Of a stretch of 64,000 nt of DNA, positions 4,441 through 43,194 are shown one piece after another. This stretch comes from an uncultured Eubacteriales bacterium. GTDB taxonomy: Bacteria > Actinomycetota > Coriobacteriia > Anaerosomatales > CAVRZR01. A model generated the notes under the pieces. The model worked only from the letters and a program-made list of their open reading frames with translations. It was not told where the DNA came from and did not search any database. The position numbers and the translations under genes were made by a program. The DNA lies in NCBI GenBank assembly GCA_964354215.1, contig CAYGYT010000001.1:146054-210053 (forward strand), written 5' to 3'. The stretch's first letter is position 1; each line of letters opens with the position of its first letter.

Positions 4441-4935
4441 GTGTCGGGGCACCGTTCCGGTTCGCCGTCCGTGCTGCCGCTCGTTCTCGAGCGCGTCGAA
4501 GTCGGCGAATCCGCCGTCGAGGCAGCCGTCCGAGTGACTGAGCCTCGGTGGATGCGCACCTCCGAGGTCCCCGGCTTCGTGGAGTCGGCGCTCCGCATCT
4601 TGCCTGGTTTGGCACGCCATCGCTGCGACTGTGGCACCGCGCACGGGCTCGAGCGCGAACTTGCCGACACAGAGACCCCGCACGCTCTCGAGCACGTCGC
4701 GCTCGAGCTCATGGCGCTTGCGGGCTCGCCACGCGAACTCGGTGGCGAGACGGTGTGGGACTTCGCCGCAGACGGGCGCGGCGTCTTCCGCGTGCGCGTG
4801 GGGTACGACGACGACCTCGTCGCACTCGGTGCGCTCGATCGAGGAGTGCGCTTGGTCAACGCGCTGCTTGTCGGAGCCCCCGCTCCGGACCCTGAGTGTG
4901 ACGCCGCCGAACTGCGGGCCTTGCGCGAGCGATAG
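4441..4935 (+). CDS. Stand-alone cyanophycin-synthetase N-terminal-domain-like protein
   Basis: VPGFVESALRILPGLARHRCD and HALEHVALELMALAG align by eye with the CphA N-domain blocks IPGFYEGL..LPSL..H.CS and GHIVEHVALELQ. No ATP-grasp or Mur-ligase part follows. Confidence 0.5.
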   Translation: MSGHRSGSPSVLPLVLERVEVGESAVEAAVRVTEPRWMRTSEVPGFVESALRILPGLARHRCDCGTAHGLERELADTETPHALEHVALELMALAGSPRELGGETVWDFAADGRGVFRVRVGYDDDLVALGALDRGVRLVNALLVGAPAPDPECDAAELRALRER

Positions 4936-5001
4936 CGCAGGGTGCGACCCGGCCGCCGTCTTGCGGGCGCACGCCAGCCCACGCAGTGTCCCGTCGCCGC
5001 G

Positions 5002-5031
5002 TTGACCCGCGGGAGTTCGCGGTGCTAGAGT
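5002..5031 (+). promoter_or_regulatory. Candidate sigma-A type promoter for the T-box leader
   Basis: TTGACC (5002..5007), an 18 nt spacer, then TAGAGT (5026..5031). It is positioned just upstream of the structured leader. Confidence 0.35.
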
Positions 5032-5039
5032 GGCCCCCA

Positions 5040-5290
5040 ACCTGCGGCGGTTCTCCGCCGCACACACAGCGAGACGTGGACGTGAGGGAAGAGGGCACCA
5101 TTCGCCCAGCCACCCCTCCGGATGTCTCCCGCCAGGGCGGAAGAGCGACGATGCCTCCGGAAGCGGGTCGGCCCGGACCGTTACCCCGGGAATGAGGCTG
5201 CGGACGATGCACAGAGCGTCGGCGGCGAAGATAGGTGGTACCGCGACGACCCCTCGCCCTATCGGCGGAGGGGTCTTGTGTTTTCCGGGG
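5040..5290 (+). promoter_or_regulatory. T-box leader (tRNA-sensing riboswitch) with intrinsic terminator
   Basis: The canonical T-box core AGGTGGTACCGCG lies at 5233..5245. It is followed immediately by the hairpin GACCCCTCGCC / GGCG(G)AGGGGTC (5248..5275) and the T-rich tract TTGTGTTTTCC (5276..5286). The element ends about 30 nt before the aminotransferase start. The specifier codon was not assigned. Confidence 0.7.
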
Positions 5291-5318
5291 CACTCGCGGC
5301 CGCGGGACGTGAAGCGAG

Positions 5319-6599
5319 GTGGGAGCTGTGGGCACAGCCAGGGTCGTGTTCGACAGGTGGGACGGACGCTACGCCGAGAGAATCCGGGACGTGCGCTCGA
5401 GCGCGGTCCGCGACCTGTTCGCCGCAGCGTCGCGCCCGGACGTGATCAGCCTGTCGGGCGGTATGCCCGACGTAGCTCGCGTCCCTGCCTCGGCCGCCGC
5501 CGATGCCGCGCACGACGCGGTCATGCACGAAGGCGCGCAAGCGCTCCAGTACGGCTCCAGCGACGGGCGGGCCCAACTCCGCGACGTGATCGTCGAGCTC
5601 ATGGCCGAGATAGGCGTGAGACTCACGCGCGAAGACCTCATCGTGACCTCGGGCGCGCAGCAGGCGCTCGATCTGCTGGCGAAGACCTTCCTCGACCCTG
5701 GAGACGTCGTGATCGCCGAGGGGCCGACCTACGTGGGCGCGCTGCAGGCGTTCTCGGCGTACCAGCCCCATATCGTCTGCGTGCCGATGGACGACCAGGG
5801 AATGCGCGTCGACCTTCTCGAGCAGGAACTCGTGAAGCTCGGATACCGCGGCGCGAAGTTCATCTACACGGTGCCCAACTTCCAGAACCCCGCTGGCGTG
5901 ACACTCGCCCCTGAGCGTCGCCGCCGGCTGCTCGAGCTCGCGCGCGAATACGACATCCCGGTGATCGAGGACGACCCGTACGGTCGGCTGCGCTTCGGGG
6001 GCGGCCACGCGAAGCCGCTGCGCGCGCTCGATGACGAGGTGATCTACCTCGGCACCTTCAGCAAGATCTTCGCTCCTGGGCTGCGGCTCGGCTGGATCGC
6101 AGCGCCACGGCCGATTCTTGCGAAGGTACTGCTGGTGAAGCAGGCGGCCGACCTCTGTGGCTCGGCGTTCGCGCAAGTGACGGCGGAGCGCTACTTCGCC
6201 GGGACGCGCTGGCGCAAGGTTCTGCAGGGGCTGGTGAAAGCGTACGCCGAGCGGCGCGATGCGATGCTCGCCGCACTCGAAGAGCACTTCCCACCCGAGG
6301 CGCGTTGGACCGTGCCAGAAGGGGGCTTCTTCGTCTGGGTCGAGTTTCCGCAGTTCGTCGATACCGCCACCATGCTTGCCGAAGCTGTCGAGCACGGTGT
6401 GACGTACGTGCCCGGCGACGCATTCTTCCCGGACGGGCGCGGGCGAAACTGTATGAGACTGGCATTCTGCTACGCTGAGCCGGAGGCCATCGCCGAGGGG
6501 ATCCGGCGGCTGGCCGAAGTCATCGAGGACCGTCTCGAGCTCTATCGCGCCTTCATCGCCGCGGGCGCGCTGCCCGAGCGCATCGAGGGAGCCGCGTGA
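5319..6599 (+). CDS. PLP-dependent aminotransferase, class I/II fold (LysN/2-aminoadipate-transaminase-like)
   Basis: Family blocks seen: ISLSGGMPD, LQYG...G, LIVTSGAQQALDL, YTVPNFQNPAGVTL, IEDDPYG.LRF, SKI.APGLRLGW. The SD site is GAGGTGGGAG. Confidence 0.85.
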   Translation: MGAVGTARVVFDRWDGRYAERIRDVRSSAVRDLFAAASRPDVISLSGGMPDVARVPASAAADAAHDAVMHEGAQALQYGSSDGRAQLRDVIVELMAEIGVRLTREDLIVTSGAQQALDLLAKTFLDPGDVVIAEGPTYVGALQAFSAYQPHIVCVPMDDQGMRVDLLEQELVKLGYRGAKFIYTVPNFQNPAGVTLAPERRRRLLELAREYDIPVIEDDPYGRLRFGGGHAKPLRALDDEVIYLGTFSKIFAPGLRLGWIAAPRPILAKVLLVKQAADLCGSAFAQVTAERYFAGTRWRKVLQGLVKAYAERRDAMLAALEEHFPPEARWTVPEGGFFVWVEFPQFVDTATMLAEAVEHGVTYVPGDAFFPDGRGRNCMRLAFCYAEPEAIAEGIRRLAEVIEDRLELYRAFIAAGALPERIEGAA

Positions 6600-6627
6600 T
6601 GCGAGAGACGGAACCGACAGGGGGATC

Positions 6628-7629
6628 GTGGTGAAAGAGAAGATCGCCGTTCTCATGGGCGGGCGTTCCCTCGAGCGCGAGGTCTCGCTCGCGAGTGGCC
6701 GTCGCGTGAGTGCTGCCCTCGAGTCGGCGGGATTCAGGGTGCTCGCGCTTGACGTGACGCCTGACCTGGTAGAAACGCTGAGGCGAGAGCGCCCGGACGC
6801 CGTCTACATCGCGTTGCATGGCAAGTACGGCGAGGACGGTACCATCCAGGAACTGCTCGAGTTCCTCGGCATCCCGTACACGGGGCCGGGGGTGGTCTCT
6901 TCGTACCTTTCGTGGGACAAGTCCGTCGCGAAACACCTCTTCGCCGCGAATGACATCCCCACTCCCGCGTGGATCACGCTCACGGCCGACGCCTTCAAGG
7001 AGATGGGTGCGGCGACCGCGCTCGACCTCATCCCCGGGCAGGTGGGGGGCTTCCCGCTCGTGGTCAAGCCGTCGACGCAGGGCTCTGCCCTCGGTCTCAC
7101 GAAGGTCGAGCGGCCCGACCAGCTCGCCGAAGCATTGCTCACCGCGCTGTCGTTTGCGGATGCCGCGCTTGTCGAGCGCTGGATCGACGGGTGTGAGCTC
7201 GCGGTGTCCGTGCTCGACGGTGCGGACGGGACGCCGTTCGTGCTGCCGCCGGTGGAGATCGTCGCGAAGTCGGGCCTGTTCGACTTCTCGGCTATGTACA
7301 CGCGCGGCGAGACCGACTACTTCGTGCCGGCGCGCCTTGCCGCCGACGTCGAGGAGCTCGTCATACAACTCGCTTCGCGGGTGCACGTCCTGCTCGGCTG
7401 CCGCGATGTGTGCCGCGTCGACATGGTGGTCGACGAGTCCGGTATGCCGTTCGTGCTCGAGTGCAACACATCGCCGGGCATGACCGAGACCTCTCTTCTG
7501 CCTATGGCAGCCGAAGCAGCAGGCCGTTCGTTCGAGGACGTCGTCACGGCGCTCACCGGCGCGGCTCTCAAACGCGTCCAACCTGGTGCCCAGCCGGGCG
7601 CCCCATCGAGCGCCGAATCGGGTACATAG
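6628..7629 (+). CDS. ddl: D-alanine--D-alanine ligase
   Basis: Blocks seen: KIAVLMGGRSLEREVSL.SG, HGKYGEDGTIQELLEFLGIPYTG, DKSVAK, PLVVKPSTQGSALG, CRVD.VVDESG.PFVLECNTSPGMTETS. Confidence 0.9.
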   Translation: MVKEKIAVLMGGRSLEREVSLASGRRVSAALESAGFRVLALDVTPDLVETLRRERPDAVYIALHGKYGEDGTIQELLEFLGIPYTGPGVVSSYLSWDKSVAKHLFAANDIPTPAWITLTADAFKEMGAATALDLIPGQVGGFPLVVKPSTQGSALGLTKVERPDQLAEALLTALSFADAALVERWIDGCELAVSVLDGADGTPFVLPPVEIVAKSGLFDFSAMYTRGETDYFVPARLAADVEELVIQLASRVHVLLGCRDVCRVDMVVDESGMPFVLECNTSPGMTETSLLPMAAEAAGRSFEDVVTALTGAALKRVQPGAQPGAPSSAESGT

Positions 7630-9704: not shown

Positions 9705-10190
9705 ATGGCTGAGGTGCCGAAGAAGGCCGGCTCTCGCGAGCGGGTCCGCAGTTTCCTCGATGCGCATGGCCTTACGGAGGGCCTCGTCGAGTTCGAGCAG
9801 TCGACGAAGACCGCGCAGATGGCGGCCGACGCCATGGGATGCGAGCTCGGTCAGATCGTGAAGTCGCTCGTGTTCGTCGTCGACGACCGGGTCGTCCTCG
9901 CCTTGGTGGCCGGCGACCGCCGAGGCGACACCAGTGCCATCGCCGCGCTGGTGGGCGGCTCGGATGCCCGATTCGCGGATGCGGACACGGTTCGCTCGGC
10001 GACCGGCTACGCGATCGGCGGGGTGTCTCCGTTCGACCTGCCCCACGACCTGCTCGTGCTCTTTGACGACTCGCTCGAGCGCTTCGAGATCGTCTATCCG
10101 GCGGGAGGAACCCCGTCGTCCATGGTCAGGATGTCCCGTCGGCAGCTCCTCGAGCTGACGCGCGGGCGCGTGGCACGCATCTCGCATTAG
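9705..10190 (+). CDS. YbaK/EbsC-type aminoacyl-tRNA trans-editing deacylase domain protein
   Basis: Blocks seen: IVKSLVFVVDD..VLALV.GD, ATGYAIGGVSPF, and IVYPAGG found in the YbaK/ProX family. Confidence 0.75.
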   Translation: MAEVPKKAGSRERVRSFLDAHGLTEGLVEFEQSTKTAQMAADAMGCELGQIVKSLVFVVDDRVVLALVAGDRRGDTSAIAALVGGSDARFADADTVRSATGYAIGGVSPFDLPHDLLVLFDDSLERFEIVYPAGGTPSSMVRMSRRQLLELTRGRVARISH

Positions 10191-11994: not shown

Positions 11995-13263
11995 CTAGCC
12001 CAGGCCCAGCACCGTCATAACGAGCAGCGCGACGGTCAGTCCGATCACTACCAGTATCGTCGTCCAGGATACGAGGTTGTACGCCCGGCCGTTGACGTAC
12101 CTGCCCATTATTCGGCGGTCGTTCACGATTCCCATCATGAAGATGAGCAGGAAGGGCAGGAGAACGCCGTTCACGGCCTGCGAGAGCACCATGATCTGGA
12201 TAAGCGGCGCCTTGGGGATGAGGACGAGCGCCGCGCCGACGAAGATGACGAAGGTGTAGATGCTGTTGAAGATCGGGGCCTCCGACCACGAACGATCGAT
12301 GCCGCGCTCCCAGCCGAACGCCTCGGTGATCGCGTAGGCCGCGGTAAGCGGCAGCACGAATGCGGCGAGCAGCGAGGCGCCGAACAGCCCGATCGCGAAG
12401 AGCGCGCTCGCGTAGCGACCGGCGACCGGCGCCAGTGCCTGTGCCGCCTGTGCGGGGCCGCCAACCCCGCTGATCTCAACTCCGCGAGGGAACAGCACGG
12501 TGCCCGTCGTCACGATGATGAACCAGGCGATCACGTTCGCTGAGATCGCCCCCGAGATCACATCGACGCGCTGGTAGACGAGGTCCTTGGCGGTCACGCC
12601 CTTGTCGACGATGTTGCTCTGCACGAAGAACTGCATCCACGGGGCAATGGTGGTGCCTACGGTTGCGATCACGATGAGCACGAAGCTCGCGCTCGGGATG
12701 AAGGTCGGTACGACGGTGGCGCGCAGAACCACGCTCCAGTCCGGCTTTGCCATGAACGCCGCCACCACGTACGCCAGGAACACGCTCGAGAGAGCGAGCA
12801 GGAGCTTCTCGATGTTGCGGTACGAGCCCCGCACCACGAGCAGCCACACCGCGACGGCAGCGACCGGCACCGAAAGGTACTTGGACACTCCAAAGAGCTC
12901 GAGCGCGGCTGCGATGCCGGCGAATTCGGCGACGGAGGTGGCCGCATTGCTCGTGAGCAGCGCGAGCATCGCGAAGAGCGTCGGCCGTATGCCGTAGCGC
13001 TCGCGGATGAGCGCCGAGAATCCCTTGCCGGTGACCGCTCCCATGCGCGCGGCGGTCTCTTGGACGATGACGAGCGAGAACGTCATCACGAAGATCATCC
13101 AGAGCATCGCGTAGCCGTAGCTCGTGCCGGCGACGGAGTACGTGGAGATGCCACCGGCGTCGTTTCCCGCCGAGGCAGCGATGATACCGGGGCCCATGGC
13201 CGCCAGCACCGCCAGAACGCCTGCCCGGCGAGTGCCGCGCTTGCTATCGGCGACCGCGGGCAA
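11995..13263 (-). CDS. mntH: NRAMP family divalent metal (Mn2+/Fe2+) transporter
   Basis: GPGIIAASAGNDAGGISTYS matches the NRAMP DPGN-type motif region, followed by about 11 TM helices. The track ORF extends to 13407 and overlaps the upstream gene. I place the start at TTG 13263, just after the upstream stop, but the start is uncertain. Confidence 0.75.
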   Translation of the reverse strand: MPAVADSKRGTRRAGVLAVLAAMGPGIIAASAGNDAGGISTYSVAGTSYGYAMLWMIFVMTFSLVIVQETAARMGAVTGKGFSALIRERYGIRPTLFAMLALLTSNAATSVAEFAGIAAALELFGVSKYLSVPVAAVAVWLLVVRGSYRNIEKLLLALSSVFLAYVVAAFMAKPDWSVVLRATVVPTFIPSASFVLIVIATVGTTIAPWMQFFVQSNIVDKGVTAKDLVYQRVDVISGAISANVIAWFIIVTTGTVLFPRGVEISGVGGPAQAAQALAPVAGRYASALFAIGLFGASLLAAFVLPLTAAYAITEAFGWERGIDRSWSEAPIFNSIYTFVIFVGAALVLIPKAPLIQIMVLSQAVNGVLLPFLLIFMMGIVNDRRIMGRYVNGRAYNLVSWTTILVVIGLTVALLVMTVLGLG

Positions 13264-13267
13264 GCGG

Positions 13268-15130
13268 CTAGCTCCACGCGACGAGGAGTACCCCGCCGAC
13301 GAAGGACAATCCCAGGTAGCACACCGTGGCGAAGAGCATCGCCCCGAGCGAGAGCCACGTTGCCGAGACCGGCCGTTCGCCCTCGCTCCGACGGCCCGCG
13401 AGTTCACCGAGGAGCGCGCCCACCAGTACGGTGGCGAGCACGGACAGGCCCGTCACGACCCCGAAGACAGCGGCTGTCTTCTCGGCGCCCCCAGAGGTGA
13501 TTTCGACGAACGCGAAGGCGACAAGCCCGATCGCGAGCGCGATCGCCGTTCCCAGGGCGCTCTCGGCGAGCAGTCGTCGGCCAAAGGAGGGCCGCTCGCC
13601 CTCACTGGTCGGGTCGATGAGTTCGGCGACCGCGCGCGAAGATGCCTCCTCGCCCGTGCGCAGCAGCAGCGGAAGCAGGATGACTGCCATCGACACGAAG
13701 ACCAGCGCGTCGGGCAGCCACGCGGGGGGGACGGCCTGAGCGAACCGTTCCTCGAGCTGCTGCGTTGACAAGGCGAACGCCAGCAGCGCCGCGACCCAGA
13801 TGATCGCCCACCCGCTGCGCCGCACGATCCACCAGCCAAGGTTCGCGACGCGGCCGTACTCGCGCGGCGATCCCGTCGCGATGGCGAGGTCCTCGTCGGC
13901 CTCCTCCTCCAACACGTCGAGCGCGTCGTCGACGGTGACGATGCCGAGGAGCTTGCCGGTCTCGTCGACGACGGGGAGTGCGAGCAGGTCGTACTTGCTC
14001 ATGGTCTCGGCGACGTCTTCCTGGTCCTCGTCGACATCGGCTGTGAACAGGTCGGTCTCGGCGATCTCGGCGACCGTAATGTCCGGCGCAGACATGATGA
14101 GGTCGCGAAGCGAGACGACGCCCGTGAGGTGACAGTCGTCCTCGATGACGTAGATGTAGTAGATCGACTCGTGCTCGGCGGATTCGGCGCGCAGATGGTT
14201 GATGACCTGCTCGACCGTCATGTCCTCGGTCACGGTCGTGACCTCGGGCGTCATGATGCCGCCGGCCGTCTTCTCCTTGTAGCCGAGGAGCGACCGGATC
14301 TGCCGAGACTCCTTCACGCCCATGAGTCGCAGCAGGCGCTCCGCCTTGTCGTAGGGGAGATCGCCCACGATGTCGGCTGCGTCGTCAGGGTCCATCTCCG
14401 CAAGAAGAAGGGATGCCCGGCGCTCCGAGAGGTCGTCGATGACGTCCGCCTGGTACTCGTCCTCGAGTTCGGTGATCGCTTCGGCGGCCTGTTCGTTGTC
14501 GAGGTGCTCGAACACCCTCGCGCGCTGGCTCGGCGACAGCTGCTCGAGGATGTCGGCGACGTCGGCCGGATGGAGCTCGTGGAGGCGCTTGTGCGTGACC
14601 GAGAGCTGGACGTGTGAGAGGTCTCGGTCGAGCAGGTCCATGTAGTTCCACGCGATGATGTTCTCGGGAAGCTTCCCGCCGAAGAGGCGCGTGATCCGAA
14701 CGCCGAGGCGCTCGATTGCGGGGGAGATGCCGCGCAGGATGCCGCGGAAGCCCACGTCGGCGCCCAACAGGCGCAGCTGGTTGCGAGACTCGGAGAGCTT
14801 GAGGTCGTTCACGCGAACGACCTTCATACCTTGCGTGTCCACGATCTGCTTGCTCATCAGGTCGCGCGCGAGCAGGACTTCGTCGGGCTGCAGGTAGGAG
14901 AAGCGAAGCTGCGACTGCTCGGCGTTCAGTCGCACCTGTTCGTCGTCGAACTCCATGACGTACTTGCGCCATGACAGCATGAACGGCGTCTTGTCCGGTC
15001 CGACGAACGCCAGCGACGTGACGCGCGGAAAGATCTCGCCCGTCGCGATGGCGACGTCGTTGATCGTGCCGATCTCGGCGCCTGCGGCATCGACCACCGG
15101 CTTCCCGAGCATGCGGGACAGGTAGATCAT
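13268..15130 (-). CDS. MgtE-related protein: 2x PRC-barrel + MgtE_N + CBS pair + non-canonical 5-TM C-terminus
   Basis: The MgtE N-domain block is HPADVADILEQLSP..R..VFE.L....AAEAI..L. A CBS pair follows (IMTPEV..V; LLALPVVDETGKLLGIVTVDD). The C-terminal TM region lacks the canonical MgtE GGNAG.Q and DPA motifs. Confidence 0.7.
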   Translation of the reverse strand: MIYLSRMLGKPVVDAAGAEIGTINDVAIATGEIFPRVTSLAFVGPDKTPFMLSWRKYVMEFDDEQVRLNAEQSQLRFSYLQPDEVLLARDLMSKQIVDTQGMKVVRVNDLKLSESRNQLRLLGADVGFRGILRGISPAIERLGVRITRLFGGKLPENIIAWNYMDLLDRDLSHVQLSVTHKRLHELHPADVADILEQLSPSQRARVFEHLDNEQAAEAITELEDEYQADVIDDLSERRASLLLAEMDPDDAADIVGDLPYDKAERLLRLMGVKESRQIRSLLGYKEKTAGGIMTPEVTTVTEDMTVEQVINHLRAESAEHESIYYIYVIEDDCHLTGVVSLRDLIMSAPDITVAEIAETDLFTADVDEDQEDVAETMSKYDLLALPVVDETGKLLGIVTVDDALDVLEEEADEDLAIATGSPREYGRVANLGWWIVRRSGWAIIWVAALLAFALSTQQLEERFAQAVPPAWLPDALVFVSMAVILLPLLLRTGEEASSRAVAELIDPTSEGERPSFGRRLLAESALGTAIALAIGLVAFAFVEITSGGAEKTAAVFGVVTGLSVLATVLVGALLGELAGRRSEGERPVSATWLSLGAMLFATVCYLGLSFVGGVLLVAWS

Positions 15131-15368: not shown

Positions 15369-15480
15369 GGCATGCGGTCGCGCGCCGGGGCGTTCCTCGG
15401 CTCGGCCACGTGAAGCCCGACCGCGCCGGTGGTGCTTGGCGCGCCCGGACCGCTCCCTCCCTCGTCGCAAGGATTTGGCA

Positions 15481-15662
15481 CTGTCCGACGTAGGACGCGC
15501 GCGCGGGTTCGCGCGACGCAGTGGGATTGCCCACCCCATGATCCAGCCACCTTAGCCTTCGCCTTAAGCCGGCGAGGGCTGTTCTACCCATTGGCGTCTC
15601 TCGACATTTCCGGGCAGTGGCCTGTGTTCGAACAGGAGCCGCACCGTAACGGACGGAGCGCT
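15481..15662 (-). promoter_or_regulatory. M-box (ykoK leader) Mg2+ riboswitch aptamer
   Basis: The minus strand reads CCGUUACGGUGCGGCUCCUGU ... CUGCCCGGAAAUGUCGAGAGACGCCAAUGGGUAGAACAG ... CUUAAGG ... GGCUGGAU ... CCUACGUCGGAC. This parallels the B. subtilis mgtE leader blocks GUUAGGUGAGGCUCCUGU, CUGCCCAAAAAUGUCCAAAGACGCUAAUGGGUCAACAG, UAAGG, GCUGGAU and CUACG. The closing P1 helix is GUCCG/CGGAC. Confidence 0.8.
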
Positions 15663-38478: not shown

Positions 38479-40329
38479 CTACATCTGCGCCTTGCCGACC
38501 CAGATCGTGACGTTGGCGCCACGATTGAGCTGGGTGTTAGGCAGCGGGTCCTGGGTCAGGACGAATCCCACGTCGGGACTGATCTGGTAGTTGACGGTCA
38601 CCTGAAGGCCGAGGTTCTCCAGCGTTGAAATAGCGTCAGCCTCGCCTTGGCCGGTCACATCCGGCACCGTGACGAGCTGCGGGCCCTTCGAGACGAGGAT
38701 CGTGATCCGGGTGCCGACCATGACGAACACCCCGCTGATGGGCGACTGGCTGATGACCACACCCTTCTTCACGGTCTCGCTGTAGTCCTCGCTCACCTTG
38801 ACCTTGAAGCCCGCGGCGGTAAGCGCCTTGTTCGCGTCGGACTGGGACTTCCCGACAACGTCCGGTACCTGCCTGAGCTCCGGTCCTTCGGAGATGACGA
38901 GTGCGATGAGCGACCCTCGTGCGGCTTGCGCGCCAGCGGCCGGTGCCTGGCTGACGACGTCGCCCTTCGGCACTTTGCTATTGGGCTTTCGTTGCGGGAC
39001 GTCAAGCTCGAAGCCGGAACTGCGCGCGAGCCTGGTCGCGTCGGACTCGTTCATGCCTTTCAGGTCGGGCACCTCGAGGAGTTCGACGCCCTTGCTCACG
39101 ACGAGATCGATCTTGGTGTCCTTCTCGACTTCGACCCCCACACCGGGCGACTGGTCGATGACAATGCCCGCCGTCACCTCGTCGCTGTAGGTCTGCTCTA
39201 CGGTTCCTACCGCGAGCTCCTCCGCCGTGAGCCGCGCTTCCGCTTGTGCGAGCGTCTGACCGCTCAAGTCCGGAACCACGATGCCGGAGGGTCCGAGCAC
39301 GCCCGCGGTCCAGGCCCAGATCAACCCGCCCACTGCCAGCACGCCGACGATCGCGGCGATCCACGGCCACGGGCTTGTCTTGCGCGGAGGTGAGGCCGGG
39401 CGCGACTGGGTCGTCGTCGTACCCTCGCCGACCGCCGGCATCACGGAGGTCTCAGCCATGCCCGCACCGGCCGCGGCGGCCATCGCCGCATCCCCCGCCA
39501 GCGCCTCGGTCTGCTGGCCCTGCGACACGCGGATAAGGTCGCGGCGCATCTCCTCGGCCGACGCGTAGCGGTCTTGCGGGTTCTTCGCCATGGCCTTGAG
39601 GATCACGGCTTCGAGCGAGGCGGGAATCGCCGGATTGATCGTGCGCGGAGCGATGGGCGGCTCGTTGACCTGCTTGAGCGCTACCGAGACAGGCGTATCG
39701 CCGTCGAACGGGAGGCGTCCGGTCGAGAGTTCATACAGAACGATGCCGAGCGAGTACAGGTCGCTCGTCGGGCCGAGGGGCCGACCCTGCGCCTGCTCCG
39801 GACTGACGTACTGCGCGGTGCCGAGCACGGAGCCGGTCTGCGTCATGTTCGTGTTGCCGGCGCGCGCAATGCCGAAGTCCATGACCTTGATCTGACCGTC
39901 CGGCGTGAGCACGATGTTCTGTGGTTTGATGTCGCGGTGGATGATGTCGTAGCCGTGGGCCACCGACAGCGCGGCCGCGACCTGGGCCCCGTACTCGGCG
40001 ACCTTCACGGGGTCGATCGCGCCGCGTTCCTCCACGAGTGCTTTGAGATCGGTGCCTCGGACGTACTCCATAACGATGTAGTACGTCTCGCCGTCTTGAC
40101 CCCAGTCGTAGATGTTGACGATGTTGGGGTGCGAGAGGTTGGCCGCCGATGCGGCCTCGTGCCTGAACCGCTGCACGAAGTTGGGATCGGTCGCGTATCG
40201 GGGGTGCAGGACTTTGACAGCCACGGTCCTGCCGAGGACCTCGTCGACCGCCTTGTAGACGTCGGCCATGCCGCCGGAGCCGATCGTCTCGATCGCCCGG
40301 TACCTTCGGCCGAACACGCGATCCTCCAC
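38479..40329 (-). CDS. pknB: Ser/Thr protein kinase with four PASTA domains
   Basis: Hanks kinase blocks are GSGGMADVYKA, VAVK, HRDIKPQN, DFGIA and SPEQ. A single TM is followed by four repeats beginning VPDLSG / VPDLKG / VPDVVG / VPDVTG. Confidence 0.9.
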   Translation of the reverse strand: MEDRVFGRRYRAIETIGSGGMADVYKAVDEVLGRTVAVKVLHPRYATDPNFVQRFRHEAASAANLSHPNIVNIYDWGQDGETYYIVMEYVRGTDLKALVEERGAIDPVKVAEYGAQVAAALSVAHGYDIIHRDIKPQNIVLTPDGQIKVMDFGIARAGNTNMTQTGSVLGTAQYVSPEQAQGRPLGPTSDLYSLGIVLYELSTGRLPFDGDTPVSVALKQVNEPPIAPRTINPAIPASLEAVILKAMAKNPQDRYASAEEMRRDLIRVSQGQQTEALAGDAAMAAAAGAGMAETSVMPAVGEGTTTTQSRPASPPRKTSPWPWIAAIVGVLAVGGLIWAWTAGVLGPSGIVVPDLSGQTLAQAEARLTAEELAVGTVEQTYSDEVTAGIVIDQSPGVGVEVEKDTKIDLVVSKGVELLEVPDLKGMNESDATRLARSSGFELDVPQRKPNSKVPKGDVVSQAPAAGAQAARGSLIALVISEGPELRQVPDVVGKSQSDANKALTAAGFKVKVSEDYSETVKKGVVISQSPISGVFVMVGTRITILVSKGPQLVTVPDVTGQGEADAISTLENLGLQVTVNYQISPDVGFVLTQDPLPNTQLNRGANVTIWVGKAQM

Positions 40330-40443: not shown

Positions 40444-43194
40444 CTACCTCGATCCCTGTGCCGTGAGGGCCGCTTCGAGCACCGGCTTGGCGGCGGGTGC
40501 GGCCACCCGTCCGCCCACACCCGCGTTCTCGAGCACGATCGACATCGCGACGGTTGGGTTGTCGGCTGGCGCGAATGCGATGAACCATGCGTGTGTCCCG
40601 ACTGACTTTCCCGCCTCGGCGGTCCCCGTCTTCCCGGCCACCTTCACGCCCGGGATTCGAGCGCGGGCACCCGAGCCGTGCTCCACGACCTCCACCATCA
40701 GATCGCGCACGGTCGCGGCCGTCGCCGGTTCAACGGCGGTGAGCCAGCCGCGAGTGGGTGTCGTCGCGAGGACCCGCCCCGCCTCGTCGCGAACGCTGTT
40801 GATGATGTGTGGCTCCATGATGAGGCCCGCGTTTGCCACGCCCGATGCGACGAGCGCCATCTCGAACGCCGTGGCCTGCGGCCCGGGCGGGCTCTCGTGC
40901 TCCCCGACGGGCTGTCCGACGCCCGCCCACGCGGTCTCCCACACGGTCATCTCGGCGGGGTCGGGCATGAGCGATGTCTTCACCGGCAGCTCGAAGGGCG
41001 TGGTGTGGTCGAAGCCGTACGCGTCGGCCTGCGCGACGAGGCGATCGGGCCCCAGGTCCACCGCGAGCTGTGCGAACACGGTGTTGACCGAGCGGGCGAG
41101 CGCGGTGGCCAGATCGAGCAAGCCGTACGAGCCACCCTCGAAGTTGGTCACGGGCGCGTTGCCGATCTCGATTCGGCCCGGACCGGGATACGTGGTCTCG
41201 GGCGTCGCGATGCCCGCGCCGAGCGCGCCGGAGAGCGTGACTACCTTGAAGGTCGATCCCGGTGGGTAGAGGGCCTGCGTCGCTCGGCTTACCAGCGGAG
41301 CGCCCTTCGCCGAGGAGAGCGTCTTCCACTGGTCGTCGATGATCGCTGGTGGATAGCTCGGCGAGGAGGCGAGCGCGAGCACGGAGTTGTCCCGCGGGTC
41401 GAACACGACACAGGCGCCACGCTGTCCTGTGAGCGCGGCCTGTGCGGCCTTCTGCACTGTGGAGTCGATGGTGAGCACCACGTCGTTGCCGGTCACGGGG
41501 ATGCCCGCAGCGGCGTCGATCACATCTTGGAAGCTCCCGAACACACGGCGCCCCGAGAGGACCTCGTTGGCGGCGCGCTCGACGCCGGCCCGACCGTACG
41601 TGGGCGAGGTGTAGCCGACGACATGAGCGGCGAGCACTCCCGCGGGGTAGCGGCGCTTGAACGTGCCACCCCTAGCCGGCACCGACTCGGCGAGCACGGC
41701 GCCGTCGGCAGTGACGATGGCGCCCCGGTCGCCCCGTGCCTCCTCGGCGAGCAACCGTGTATTCGCGGGATGGTTGCGGAGCCTATCCGCCTGGACCACC
41801 TGCACGTACGTGAGGTTCACCACGAGCGCGACGAGCAGGATGGAGATCACGTCGGCCACGCGTACGAGCCTGCGCGAGAGCGCCACGCGTCCCAGCACGC
41901 CGATGTCACCCGCAGTCGTCTGCATCTCGGTTTCGACGCCGGTGGCCTCGTCGCCCGCGCGCAGCAGCAGGCCGAGCAGCATGAAGTTGGCGATGATGGA
42001 CGAGCCGCCATAGCTCACGAACGGAAGCGTGACACCGGTCAGCGGCACGAGGCGGGTGACCCCCCCGATGATGACGAACGTTTGCAGCCCGATAGCCGCA
42101 ACGAGCCCCGTCGCCGTGAGCGCCGCCATGTCGGAGCGGGCGCGCGCTGCCGTGGCGAGGCCACGCAGGCAGAACACGGCGTAGGCTATGATGAGCCCCA
42201 CACCGCCCACGAGCCCGAGCTCCTCGCCGATGGCCGCGAAGATGAAGTCGGTCTCCACTGAGGGGATACGGCCTGGTAGTCCTCGGCCGACTCCGACGCC
42301 GGTGACACTGCCCGCGGCAAGCGCGAAGAGCGACTGGACGAGCTGGTAGCCCCGATCGGCCGCGTCGGCGAAGGGGTGCAACCAGATCTCAACGCGCGTC
42401 TGCACGTGCGCGAACATGAAGTACGCGGCGGTGGCTCCGGCGGCGAAGAGCACTACCCCCACGATTACGTAGCTGATGCGTCCGGTGGCCGCGTAGATCA
42501 TCACGAGGAAGATGCCGAAGAAGAGCAGGCTCGACCCCAGGTCCTTTTCGGCGATGAGCACGAAGAGCGATATCGCCCACATGAGTAGGAGCGGGCCGAG
42601 CTGTTTGAGCGGGGGCATCCACACCCCAAGTACTCGGCGCGTCGAGATCGAGAGCAGCTCACGGTTCTCGGCAAGGTATGCGGCGAGGAAGAGCACGACG
42701 AGGATCTTCGCGACCTCGCCGGGCTGGAACGAGAGGCCGCCGAAGCGCAGCCAGAGCTTCGCGCCGTTCACCTCGCGTCCGACGAGCGCGGGCAGAACCA
42801 GCAGAGCGATGCCTGTGAGCATGATTGTGTACTTGTAGCGCGCGAGGCGTTCGAGCGAGCGCACCATCACAAGCATGAGTGCGAGTACCGCCACTCCGCT
42901 GAAGAGCCACACGATCTGGCTCTTGCCGAGCTCGGGATCGAGCCGAGTGACAAACGCGACGCCGACGCCCGAGAGCAGCGCCGCGATGGGCAGCAACGCG
43001 GGGTCGGCGGCGGGTGCGGTCAGTCGTACGGCAACGTGAGCGATGCCGAATGCCGCGATCAGCCCGGCGGGCACGATGAGGTCGGCAAGCGCGATCGACT
43101 TGGACGCCTGTGCCTGCACGAGGGCGAAGATCAGCAACACGACGGGAGCAACCGCGAGGAGCAGGAGGAGTTCGAGTGTGCGTGGGTTCTTCAT
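40444..43194 (-). CDS. Fused SEDS glycosyltransferase (RodA/FtsW) - class B penicillin-binding protein (PbpA-like)
   Basis: The N-terminal ~420 aa are polytopic and end in the SEDS signature LPFVSYGGSS. The C-terminal half carries the transpeptidase motifs STFK, SVN and KTGT. It is one continuous 916-codon ORF. Confidence 0.85.
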   Translation of the reverse strand: MKNPRTLELLLLLAVAPVVLLIFALVQAQASKSIALADLIVPAGLIAAFGIAHVAVRLTAPAADPALLPIAALLSGVGVAFVTRLDPELGKSQIVWLFSGVAVLALMLVMVRSLERLARYKYTIMLTGIALLVLPALVGREVNGAKLWLRFGGLSFQPGEVAKILVVLFLAAYLAENRELLSISTRRVLGVWMPPLKQLGPLLLMWAISLFVLIAEKDLGSSLLFFGIFLVMIYAATGRISYVIVGVVLFAAGATAAYFMFAHVQTRVEIWLHPFADAADRGYQLVQSLFALAAGSVTGVGVGRGLPGRIPSVETDFIFAAIGEELGLVGGVGLIIAYAVFCLRGLATAARARSDMAALTATGLVAAIGLQTFVIIGGVTRLVPLTGVTLPFVSYGGSSIIANFMLLGLLLRAGDEATGVETEMQTTAGDIGVLGRVALSRRLVRVADVISILLVALVVNLTYVQVVQADRLRNHPANTRLLAEEARGDRGAIVTADGAVLAESVPARGGTFKRRYPAGVLAAHVVGYTSPTYGRAGVERAANEVLSGRRVFGSFQDVIDAAAGIPVTGNDVVLTIDSTVQKAAQAALTGQRGACVVFDPRDNSVLALASSPSYPPAIIDDQWKTLSSAKGAPLVSRATQALYPPGSTFKVVTLSGALGAGIATPETTYPGPGRIEIGNAPVTNFEGGSYGLLDLATALARSVNTVFAQLAVDLGPDRLVAQADAYGFDHTTPFELPVKTSLMPDPAEMTVWETAWAGVGQPVGEHESPPGPQATAFEMALVASGVANAGLIMEPHIINSVRDEAGRVLATTPTRGWLTAVEPATAATVRDLMVEVVEHGSGARARIPGVKVAGKTGTAEAGKSVGTHAWFIAFAPADNPTVAMSIVLENAGVGGRVAAPAAKPVLEAALTAQGSR

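Follow-up and report, generated by a model that had tools for sequence, protein, structure and literature searches.

A predicted tRNA-Ala-sensing T-box with a truncated Stem I and an intrinsic terminator upstream of an aminotransferase-ddl operon in uncultured Anaerosomatales

Positions 5002-5284 of a 64,000 nt stretch of DNA from an uncultured actinomycetote (hereafter 'the window') are, judged from their sequence, a genuine T-box RNA switch. Among regulators of this well-known type the leader is unusual in having a short arm; it occurs in an uncultured group of Actinomycetota and probably represents a T-box riboswitch, most likely sensing tRNA-Ala, that controls an aminotransferase-ddl operon through transcription attenuation; we assign this reading a probability of about 0.72. 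What was established computationally comprises the gene identities, the sequence elements with their conservation and covariation, and the helices that exclude one another. A sequence-only reading of the same DNA had described an exact T-box core followed by a terminator hairpin and T-tract, a promoter (TTGACC-18-TAGAGT) and a downstream gene pair with a 28 nt gap, and had proposed that a terminator-type T-box places aminotransferase and ddl under the control of uncharged tRNA. All of these features were recovered at the coordinates given there, and the core of the proposal holds computationally, given the covarying elements, a terminator in 55 of 55 leaders and the adjacency of the genes.

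Features of the locus (all on the + strand, in coordinates of the window)
5002-5284, +: promoter, T-box leader (~250 nt) and intrinsic terminator, 5' of the aminotransferase and ddl
5002-5031, +: promoter, with -35 TTGACC (5002-5007), 18 nt spacer and extended -10 TGC-TAGAGT (5023-5031)
5043-5062, +: 5' hairpin UGCGGCGG-UUCU-CCGCCGCA, upstream of Stem I
5078-5127, +: truncated Stem I, ~50 nt
5078-5081 / 5124-5127, +: lower helix of Stem I, GGAC/GUCU; 96.8% paired, two pairs changed on both sides
5084-5088 / 5114-5118, +: middle helix of Stem I, GAGGG/CCCUC; invariant
5089-5092, +: side bulge AAGA of Stem I, opposite A-GCC-A-C (5108-5113)
5093-5096 / 5104-5107, +: upper helix of Stem I, GGGC/GCCC, with a 7 nt loop cap
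5109-5112, +: proposed specifier GCC (Ala; 5109-5111) and conserved 3' purine A5112
5128-5167, +: Stem II, with basal helix CCCGC/GCGGG (5128-5132 / 5163-5167); 98.9% paired
5133-5135 / 5159-5163, +: S-turn-type internal loop of Stem II, CAG / GGAAG
5172-5190, +: Stem IIA, CCCGG/CCGGG, its loop carrying the F-box CCGUUA (5178-5183)
5197-5226, +: Stem III, a variable-length hairpin lying between GAG (5194-5196) and GAAGA (5227-5231)
5231-5262, +: antiterminator, with helices A1 AUAGG/CCUAU (5231-5235 / 5258-5262) and A2 GCGA/UCGC (5243-5246 / 5254-5257)
5236-5242, +: 7 nt T-box bulge UGGUACC between A1 and A2; invariant
5248-5284, +: intrinsic terminator, a hairpin (5248-5275) with U-tract UUGUGUUUU (5276-5284)
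5328-6599, +: PLP-dependent class I/II aminotransferase, 423 aa (Pfam Aminotran_1_2, 5e-36)
6628-7629, +: D-alanine--D-alanine ligase, DdlB-like, 333 aa (NCBIfam PRK01372 and TIGR01205)

A conserved and covarying leader

The promoter, TTGACC-18-TAGAGT with an upstream TG, was the sole promoter-like (sigma-70-like) site in a scan of positions 4700-5500, shuffled versions of which gave a mean of 0.0 such sites, and an extended -10 of the form TGnTAnnnT occupies the equivalent position in 48/55 orthologous leaders. The T-box core AGGTGGTACCGCG at 5233-5245 is equally distinctive, as it provides the only exact GGTGGNACCGCG in the 64 kb window, against a chance expectation of ~0.03 per window (11 specified bases, two strands).

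This leader also stands before the orthologous operon in 54 other species-level genomes of Anaerosomatales/Coriobacteriia, and compensatory changes were found in Stem I, Stem II, Stem IIA, Stem III, the antiterminator and the terminator. Across the alignment the drawn structure is 90.6% paired, compared with 39-51% when partners are slid; double-sided changes occur in 24 of the 44 pairs, and none of 500 shuffles reached the observed values. Both sides have changed in three of the five basal pairs of Stem II, in four of the five pairs of Stem IIA, which is 93% paired, and in all five pairs of the 97.1% paired base helix of Stem III; these three elements were also recovered by unsupervised RNAalifold. 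Several unpaired elements are held constant alongside them: the five-purine string GGAAG of Stem II, a T-box feature described in PMC7778990, is invariant, as are the RAG and AA motifs flanking Stem III (described in PMC11297988 and PMC7778990), and the F-box is conserved as CCGNUA, although a search of the leader for its IIB pseudoknot partner identified none. The antiterminator is 100% paired in the 55 sequences, with helix A1 exchanging U-A for C-G in 22 of them and A-U for U-A in one.

The 5' hairpin follows a different pattern, being kept at the same position in nearly all orthologs with entirely different stem and loop sequences. Column-wise counts for this helix (helix 1) are uninformative, as it is misaligned by MAFFT. 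Its unconserved loop makes it an unlikely platform for the tRNA elbow, and its likeliest role is as a 5'-end stabiliser or folding insulator.

Matches to the Rfam T-box model were weak. The sequence-only reading had made its identification depend on a hit to RF00230, and this was only narrowly obtained: there was no match at the gathering threshold, but searching positions 4900-5400 in E-value mode gave a match at 5139-5264 scoring 26.7 bits (E = 4.5e-4), far below the gathering value of 93, and one ortholog (L011) had no match even at E <= 1. Within the alignment the F-box of Stem IIA, Stem III and the T-box/antiterminator are placed well, the last with high posterior probability, and Stem I is deleted. 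Given that a control T-box with a long Stem I, from an Atopobiaceae locus (L057) in a sister order, scored only 29.4 bits, the low score reflects weakness of the model on high-GC genomes, and the RF00230 threshold is therefore uninformative for this clade.

A truncated Stem I and its proposed specifier

Whether Stem I could be folded at all had been left as a further point on which the proposal might fail. It does fold: the flanking helices are supported and GCC is exposed in the side bulge. The upper helix closes in 50/50 distinct Stem I sequences, with one compensatory and two wobble changes, and lineages with insertions extend it coaxially and carry GNRA caps. Above the specifier bulge, Stem I is capped by a hairpin of 13-19 nt whose loop varies. 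The middle helix and the specifier strand, being invariant, cannot be confirmed through covariation, and RNAalifold applied to the full alignment prefers a long-range pairing of these strands with the discriminator.

Neither of the T-loop motifs AGAGA and UGxRA (consensus from PMC7583486) is visible in the Stem I sequence, and its 50 nt leave no room for them; the elbow-binding double T-loop is absent. At the base of Stem I, GUGA (5082-5085) and GA (5121-5122) are present, and no register yields the canonical K-turn arrangement, in which tandem sheared G-A pairs stack on each of the two helices; covariation cannot help in judging this, because all of the relevant positions are invariant.

The proposed specifier GCC is invariant in the 50 distinct Stem I sequences. 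The base that follows is always a purine (A in 49, G in one), whereas either G (34 sequences) or A (16) comes before it, and the position of GCC agrees with the class I/IV convention of a specifier on the 3' side of the bulge (PMC10482949, PMC7778990). From these patterns the specifier is most likely GCC, encoding alanine, with a codon frame that could be shifted by one base (GCC or CCA) and an identity resting partly on gene content. The alanine reading is supported by the regulated genes being alanine-related, in that they comprise a bona fide Ddl and a member of an aminotransferase family that includes alanine:glyoxylate transaminase. Furthermore, the UGGU of the T-box bulge fits a tRNA with discriminator A73, which suits tRNA-Ala and not bacterial tRNA-Gly (U73). 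A glycine specifier, GGC at 5094-5096 within GAAGAGGGCACC (5088-5099), had been suggested in the sequence-only reading and flagged there as unreliable; it was rejected, since the upper Stem I helix uses these bases as its 5' strand.

An expression platform ending in a terminator

The terminator hairpin, GACCCCUCGCC / GGCGGAGGGGUC with one bulged G, folds at -22.7 kcal/mol and reuses the 3' strand of the antiterminator (-5.1 kcal/mol), making the two structures mutually exclusive. A simple consensus terminator scan missed the hairpin at 5248-5275, apparently through a rule requiring a short uninterrupted stem and a loop of 3-8 nt. In 55/55 orthologs a hairpin (median -20.1 kcal/mol) is followed by at least four U in 9 nt, and in each the terminator is more stable than the antiterminator, by about 14 kcal/mol. 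Its outer stem occurs in 21 different combinations of 5' and 3' strands, and is perfectly complementary in 49 of the 55.

The downstream genes

The aminotransferase probably starts at the GTG at 5328, preceded by the SD sequence GAGGUGGGAG at 5316-5325, instead of the mechanical ORF start at 5319; its homologs are 423 aa long and begin MGTAR. Among solved structures its nearest relatives are PH0207 (389 bits), the T. profundus multiple-substrate aminotransferase, the T. litoralis alanine:glyoxylate transaminase and LysN, the nearest characterised enzymes being of broad specificity or acting on kynurenine or aminoadipate, not dedicated alanine transaminases. No NCBIfam model scored above its own cutoff, and the probable assignment of this enzyme to alanine comes solely from the T-box specifier and the neighbouring ddl.

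The ligase, by contrast, is readily classified, at 325.8 bits to PRK01372 (cutoff 243) and 272.9 bits to TIGR01205 (cutoff 245.65), its best solved relative being E. coli DdlB (218 bits). A Van-type ligase was rejected, as the D-Ala-D-Ser and D-Ala-D-Lac models all scored far below their cutoffs. The 28 nt between the aminotransferase stop and the ddl start (6600-6627) contain no promoter-like site. In 60 of the 61 Coriobacteriia loci extending far enough, the aminotransferase is followed by ddl, frequently with the stop codon of the one overlapping the start codon of the other, and the adjacency recurs in two other Actinomycetota.

Comparison with known T-boxes

In its architecture the leader is 'class IV'-like, having an intermediate Stem I without the IDTM, a specifier side bulge between two helices and a Stem II domain, yet its expression platform is a terminator. 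As far as the class is outlined in PMC10482949, this architecture has been described so far for translational ileS T-boxes. The ileS T-box of Actinomyces odontolyticus, as presented there after Sherwood et al. 2015, shares with the leader an intermediate Stem I lacking the interdigitated double T-loop, a purine S-turn within its Stem II domain, an F-box carried by a Stem IIA/B-type element, and an actinomycetote host. Set against the class description, the leader differs in carrying an intrinsic terminator and U-tract in place of an SD sequestrator, in its GCC (Ala) rather than AUC (Ile) specifier, in regulating an aminotransferase and ddl rather than an aminoacyl-tRNA synthetase, in the extra 5' hairpin before Stem I, and in belonging to uncultured Anaerosomatales of the Coriobacteriia.

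The switch itself resembles that of class I T-boxes of the Bacillus subtilis tyrS type (RF00230), in which an antiterminator with a UGGNACC bulge competes with a terminator and the default state is OFF; Stem II with an S-turn, an F-box in a Stem IIA/B-type element, Stem III, and a specifier and purine on the 3' side of the internal loop are likewise shared. However, Stem I is about 50 nt long here compared with about 90-110 nt, and has neither the elbow-docking module of AG bulge and distal loop (IDTM), nor an S-turn (AGUA/GAA) above the codon, nor a K-turn that can be drawn canonically.

T-boxes of Actinomycetota had been characterised in the sequence-only reading as mainly controlling ileS at the level of translation. 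A transcriptional T-box outside ileS has a precedent in the his operon of Corynebacterium glutamicum, which is cited (PMC9413887) as an actinobacterial case of T-box-type transcriptional attenuation of amino-acid biosynthesis genes; the amino acid (His), operon and lineage differ. The less usual point, overlooked in that reading, is the combination of a truncated Stem I with a terminator. A link between tRNA charging and the supply of cell-wall building blocks also has a parallel in the Staphylococcus aureus glyS T-box (PMC4574755). In that case the link is indirect, through the synthetase that charges tRNA-Gly for pentaglycine bridges, whereas here a peptidoglycan precursor enzyme, Ddl, itself lies within the regulated operon.

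Alternative readings

The same T-box might instead act mainly on translation, with the hairpin sequestering or playing a structural part instead of terminating efficiently. For class III/IV architectures, action mostly on translation has been reported (PMC10482949), the elbow-binding motif thought necessary for co-transcriptional speed is missing, the U-tract UUGUGUUUU is interrupted, and in several leaders (e.g. L009, L018 and L045) a second hairpin between the terminator and start codon can pair a pyrimidine-rich tract with the SD. This second hairpin nevertheless occurs in only part of the sequences and lies clear of the T-box switch, while the helix that does compete with the antiterminator never contains the SD and is followed by a U-tract. 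Both the SD and the start codon lie downstream of the folded leader structure, by 3-75 nt, and the distance from T-box core to start codon varies between 69 and 134 nt. In all 55 leaders a U-rich tract directly follows the hairpin, and its conservation would serve no purpose in a pure sequestrator. Primarily translational control appears unlikely. Decay of the leader into a relic, leaving either a structured 5' UTR or a partial terminator that acts constitutively, neither of them sensing tRNA, would be in keeping with the low Rfam scores and with the evolutionary lability of the element, which two loci (L027 and L046) lack, of which two more (L013 and L052) keep just a stub containing the terminator, and which is missing from Coriobacteriales despite their retention of the aminotransferase-ddl pair. 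Against this, all functional T-box elements are intact in 55 species-level genomes, and about 60 invariant positions together with compensatory changes in seven helices indicate purifying selection on the structure, not decay, leaving a non-functional leader very improbable.

A T-box reading the frame one base later, as CCA (5110-5112), would sense tRNA-Pro(UGG). Bacterial tRNA-Pro has A73, so that UGGU would fit it as well; moreover C5113 is unpaired when the middle helix is drawn as GAGGG/CCCUC, and the only change in the base following GCC, where L001 has G in place of A, would be synonymous, CCA to CCG. With C5113 unpaired, the TBDB default, which takes bulge positions 2-4 counted from the 3' side (PMC7778990), gives this frame. 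It would, however, place the pyrimidine C5113 where a purine is functionally critical (PMC7583486), and the CCG of L001 would demand a different isoacceptor, T-boxes having a preference for strict Watson-Crick pairing (PMC7778990). Neither downstream gene is tied to proline, which an aminotransferase cannot make, and Ddl uses D-alanine; downstream gene ontology, TBDB's own tie-breaker, accordingly picks alanine. We therefore regard a proline specifier as distinctly unlikely.

Proposed mechanism

Under the preferred reading, transcriptional control by tRNA-Ala, RNA synthesis would start about 7 nt past the -10 element (5026-5031), and the nascent leader would fold into the 5' hairpin, a short Stem I presenting GCC in its side bulge, a Stem II containing the purine S-turn, Stem IIA with the F-box, and Stem III. 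The anticodon of tRNA-Ala(GGC) is predicted to pair with GCC, Stem II buttressing the pairing as in class III/IV ileS T-boxes; no contact with the tRNA elbow would be made, because the distal double T-loop is absent. If the tRNA were uncharged, its 3' ACCA could pair with UGGU (5236-5239) and stabilise the weak antiterminator (about -5 kcal/mol), allowing RNA polymerase to read through into the aminotransferase and ddl. With tRNA charged or absent, the much stronger terminator (about -20 kcal/mol) would be expected to form, halting transcription at the U-tract (5276-5284) in vivo. Low alanine charging would in this way yield more of an enzyme that may be able to make L-alanine, and more Ddl, sustaining D-Ala-D-Ala synthesis when the substrate pool is low.

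Implications

According to reviews (PMC7583486), transcriptional T-boxes generally need the elbow-binding motif, absent here, for fast tRNA capture, and the leader challenges the rule held in the field that a long, elbow-binding Stem I goes with transcriptional control and a truncated Stem I with translational control (PMC7583486, PMC10482949). With 55 sequence variants, it offers a natural test case. The strongest form of the proposal, that a T-box without an elbow module decides co-transcriptionally at an intrinsic terminator while tRNA-Ala charging directly gates D-Ala-D-Ala ligase, is advanced tentatively, at slightly less than even odds. Were it true, elbow docking would not be a general requirement for kinetically controlled T-boxes, and time or affinity would have to be gained elsewhere, for example from a tight Stem I-Stem II groove, the length of Stem III, the 5' hairpin or a slow polymerase.

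The low sensitivity of RF00230 has a practical consequence, since at its gathering threshold the model misses T-boxes in high-GC Coriobacteriia, and regulon reconstructions of MAG-only lineages therefore probably undercount them. The leader also provides a functional hint for the otherwise unassignable aminotransferase family found beside ddl across the Coriobacteriia, which probably supplies alanine. Lastly, the peptidoglycan precursor enzyme Ddl is placed under predicted tRNA-charging control, for which no earlier report was found in the searchable literature; if this is correct, translation status would act as a checkpoint on peptidoglycan precursor synthesis across a whole order of Actinomycetota.

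The leader and its operon

The T-box core is the 13-mer AGGTGGTACCGCG at 5233-5245, and the exact string GGTGGNACCGCG occurs only once in the 64-kb window. The elements surrounding it are listed below.

Features of the leader and the start of the first regulated gene (window coordinates)
5002-5031, +, promoter TTGACC-18-TAGAGT with an upstream TG, the sole promoter-like site in a scan of 4700-5500
5043-5062, +, 5' hairpin, conserved across orthologs in position, not in sequence or loop
5078-5127, +, Stem I, with lower helix GGAC/GUCU and invariant middle helix GAGGG/CCCUC
Within Stem I, +, internal loop, 5' side AAGA against 3' side A-GCC-A-C
Within Stem I, +, upper helix GGGC/GCCC, capped by a 7-nt loop
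5248-5275, +, terminator hairpin, folding at -22.7 kcal/mol
5276-5284, +, U-tract UUGUGUUUU, directly 3' of the terminator hairpin
5328, +, GTG start of a class I/II aminotransferase (MGTARV..., 423 aa as in homologs), with Shine-Dalgarno (SD) sequence GAGGUGGGAG upstream

The core, the promoter, the hairpin with its T-tract and the downstream aminotransferase and ddl genes, all claimed in a sequence-only reading of this DNA, were found in the window. When shuffled, the 4700-5500 region was expected to yield 0 promoter sites. The 5248-5275 hairpin was missed by a consensus terminator scan, apparently through its bulged G and nested loop, and explicit folding of the hairpin was used instead. 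GTG 5328 is most likely the aminotransferase start; the mechanical ORF begins three codons earlier, at 5319.

The aminotransferase falls in a group of PH0207, multiple-substrate, alanine:glyoxylate and LysN enzymes, and reached the cutoff of none of the NCBIfam family models. Since no model passes, we infer a role in alanine synthesis from the T-box and from the adjacent ddl. The D-Ala-D-Ala ligase, which is DdlB-like and passes curated NCBIfam cutoffs, follows after a gap of 28 nt; the two genes abut or overlap in several other loci, and no promoter-like or terminator-like site lies between them or the next genes in the window. The window was also searched for an aminoacyl-tRNA synthetase gene carrying a paralogous T-box; there was none.

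Immediately before the T-box promoter is a 164-aa gene (4441-4935, +) whose sole domain is a cyanophycin-synthetase-like N-terminal one (PF18921, 1e-13); its placement is shared by most Anaerosomatales loci and, to a weak degree, by some Coriobacteriales. Cyanophycin synthetase combines this domain with an ATP-grasp domain, and Ddl is itself an ATP-grasp enzyme, making a functional link between the PF18921 protein and ddl conceivable. Beyond the YtxH, PRC-barrel and GNAT genes, approximately 2 kb downstream from ddl and in the same orientation, is a free-standing YbaK/ProX-type aminoacyl-tRNA editing-domain protein (9705-10190, +; PF04073, 9e-27). Some members of this type deacylate mischarged Ala-tRNA-Pro, although the proximity to a predicted alanine T-box operon may be coincidence. 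The window also contains an M-box (Mg2+) riboswitch (15452-15660, -; 122.5 bits, well over the gathering score) upstream of genes for a PRC-barrel, MgtE_N and CBS protein (13268-15130, -) and an Nramp transporter (11995-13407, -). A single 916-aa ORF (40444-43194, -) comprises FtsW/RodA/SpoVE, PBP dimerisation and transpeptidase domains, and adjoins a PASTA Ser/Thr kinase (38479-40329) in a pknB-type cell-wall cluster; this putative SEDS-bPBP fusion in place of two genes would be unusual, and a missed stop codon or frameshift is possible.

Conservation of the leader

The close relatives of the aminotransferase, at 70-92% identity, are all from uncultured Coriobacteriia/Anaerosomatales MAGs. 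The core TGGTACCGCG was present in 54 of 80 loci from species-representative genomes, 64-135 nt upstream of the aminotransferase gene, and these loci together with the window formed an alignment of 55 leaders onto which a T-box structure drawn by hand was mapped. The drawn structure reached 90.6% pairing, and sliding the 3' partners by 1-3 columns lowered this to 39-51%; 24 of the 44 pairs had changed on both sides, and the observed pairing values were matched by 0 of 500 shuffles.

Pairing and double changes in the helices of the alignment
Stem I lower helix (base of 5078-5127), +, 96.8% paired, double changes in 2 pairs
Stem II base, +, 98.9% paired, double changes in 3 pairs
Stem IIA, +, 93% paired, double changes in 4 pairs
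Stem III base, +, 97.1% paired, double changes in all 5 pairs
Antiterminator helix A1 (5231-5235/5258-5262), +, 100% paired, U-A to C-G in 22 sequences

Stems II, IIA and III were independently recovered by unsupervised RNAalifold. Invariant throughout are the Stem II purine string GGAAG, the F-box CCGNUA, the Stem III flanks (GAG on the 5' side, GAAGA on the 3' side) and the bulge UGGUACC, all of which are named functional elements of T-boxes (PMC7778990, PMC11297988, PMC7583486). A mutual-information scan aimed at a IIB pseudoknot and at any partners of the 5' hairpin, in which clade signal was dominant, picked out only helices already drawn. With these elements present, helices that covary and the core at 54 further loci, comparative sequence analysis bears out the proposal that the leader is a real, conserved T-box riboswitch.

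The search with Rfam model RF00230, put forward with that proposal, gave a divided result: nothing matched the leader at the gathering threshold of 93 bits, while permissive filters on 4900-5400 returned a sub-threshold match to 5139-5264 (26.7 bits, E = 4.5e-4) in which the F-box, Stem III and T-box/antiterminator aligned well and the entire Stem I was deleted. RF00230 found nothing at E <= 1 in the orthologous leader of locus L011, and an Atopobiaceae T-box used as a control (L057:9180-9245), which has a long, canonical-looking Stem I, scored only 29.4 bits. As both results indicate that the model is generally weak on high-GC Coriobacteriia, the low score is no refutation, nor is it alone proof of an odd architecture.

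The gene order aminotransferase-ddl-YtxH-PRC-barrel is kept in Anaerosomatales-type loci, and the aminotransferase-ddl pair also occurs, with the T-box absent, in Coriobacteriales/Atopobiaceae and two other Actinomycetota. The T-box is evolutionarily labile here. In L027 and L046 the whole leader has been lost, the promoter running straight into the SD sequence, whereas what is left at L013 (3860-3995) and L052 (3880-4000) is the promoter plus a hairpin that resembles a terminator and has a U-tract; Stem I and Stem II are gone, as is most of the T-box. Constitutive termination would be the expectation for such stubs if the hairpin has not been weakened, and they may represent either true deletions or errors of MAG assembly. 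The T-box of the uncultured Atopobiaceae genome that served as the control above (L057:8990-9260), with its long Stem I, a GAUGA motif and an AGAGC bulge, stands apart from the aminotransferase-ddl pair of that genome, around 4 kb downstream of it; a UUC-A (Phe) directly abuts its lower helix, and the locus ends before the gene it regulates.

Stem I and the specifier codon

The upper Stem I hairpin closes in all 50 distinct sequences, with a compensatory G-C to A-U change in L070 and a G-U pair in two other genomes, and in lineages with insertions the helix is lengthened coaxially to 6-8 bp under GCGA or GUGA caps. On the 3' side of the bulge beneath it, GCC (5109-5111) is the sole invariant triplet followed by a purine (A in 49 of the 50 distinct sequences and G in 1), the preceding base being A or G. 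GCC is an alanine codon, and is most likely the specifier, with tRNA-Ala the predicted ligand. The UGGU bulge predicts a discriminator base A73, which suits tRNA-Ala; tRNA-Pro likewise has A73, and bacterial tRNA-Gly has U73. A tRNA-Ala gene, sought for its anticodon and discriminator, was found neither in the window nor in 47 loci.

The glycine specifier tentatively suggested from the sequence alone, GGC at 5094-5096, instead forms the 5' strand of the upper helix: it pairs with GCCC (5104-5107), as the L070 change and the lengthened helices attest, the base following it varies, and UGGU misfits the U73 of tRNA-Gly. The apical loop, which reads AUC or AUU in many sequences, as in class III ileS T-boxes, was rejected as the specifier site: it is unconserved, and several lineages have GNRA-capped helices in its place. 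A local RNAalifold solution pairing GGC with the specifier GCC was not adopted, as it never varies except in L070, where the pairing is broken, though it could be an apo-state conformation. One caveat concerns the reading frame, which would be CCA (Pro) should C5113 be truly unpaired. This is the frame given by the TBDB default, which takes positions 2-4 counted from the bulge end (PMC7778990), and tRNA-Pro, through its A73, is compatible with UGGU. However, a pyrimidine would come next after CCA, the variant in L001 would force a change of isoacceptor, and downstream gene function, the TBDB tie-breaker, points to alanine, such that GCC is favoured. A search of 241 million metagenome records for this Stem I scaffold carrying another codon (non-C at codon position 2) produced 18 matches, none of them a T-box, and hence no independent confirmation of the codon register.

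Two strands of Stem I, 5082-5096 and 5109-5119, show 100% invariance across the 55 species, while every other helix covaries freely. These strands have complements in the discriminator that are just as invariant: GAGGG...GAGGG matches CCCUCGCCCUA and GCCACC matches GGUGGU, the zones being 5082-5119 and the T-box/antiterminator strands at 5230-5263. One possible reading of the invariance is tertiary docking with Stem II, by analogy with class III structures; another is a genuine alternative pairing in the tRNA-free state, which could mask the specifier and UGGU bulge together. The long-range pairings, proposed by RNAalifold on the full alignment, were not adopted: they show no covariation and would need to form once Stem I had already been transcribed.

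Expression platform and architecture

A hairpin reusing the 3' strand of the antiterminator, then at least 4 U in 9 nt, is found in 55/55 leaders, with a median stability of -20.1 kcal/mol. Its outer stem is seen in 21 differing strand combinations, which are perfect ungapped complements in 49 of the 55; complementarity thus persists throughout the variation, upholding the terminator-type platform of the sequence-only reading. In every leader the antiterminator, at a median of -5.6 kcal/mol, is weaker than the terminator, which is the default-OFF logic of a T-box. In the orthologs the SD and start codon lie at a variable distance further downstream, outside the competing helix; this, with the conserved hairpin and U-tract, favours transcription attenuation over SD sequestration, and the predicted mode is most likely transcription termination on the aminotransferase-ddl operon. 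Some orthologs have a second, facultative hairpin in which a pyrimidine tract can pair with the SD, and may add a translational effect.

Stem I is too short for an interdigitated double T-loop, whose consensus motifs AGAGA and UGxRA (PMC7583486) are absent, and the 5' hairpin was rejected as a stand-in elbow platform, being without a conserved loop; there is no sign of such a replacement. In the four-class scheme of PMC10482949, class IV T-boxes, such as that of Actinomyces odontolyticus ileS, have an intermediate Stem I without the double T-loop, a Specifier held in a side bulge that separates two helices of Stem I, and a required Stem II domain. The leader shares this type of decoding module, but whereas classes III and IV 'mostly regulate translation initiation' (PMC10482949), its platform is a conserved intrinsic terminator. 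It has been argued in review that transcriptional T-boxes generally need the elbow contact, so that the tRNA is caught before polymerase reaches the terminator (PMC7583486, section 6.2).

In the literature searched, we found no report of a T-box linked to ddl, alr or D-alanine genes. Sequence, structure and conservation lead us to infer that the leader acts on aminotransferase-ddl via tRNA-Ala. T-box transcription attenuation has a precedent in Actinomycetota, being cited for the Corynebacterium glutamicum his operon (PMC9413887). What is most interesting about the leader is less its presence in this phylum than the joining of a conserved intrinsic terminator to a decoding module of class IV-like type.
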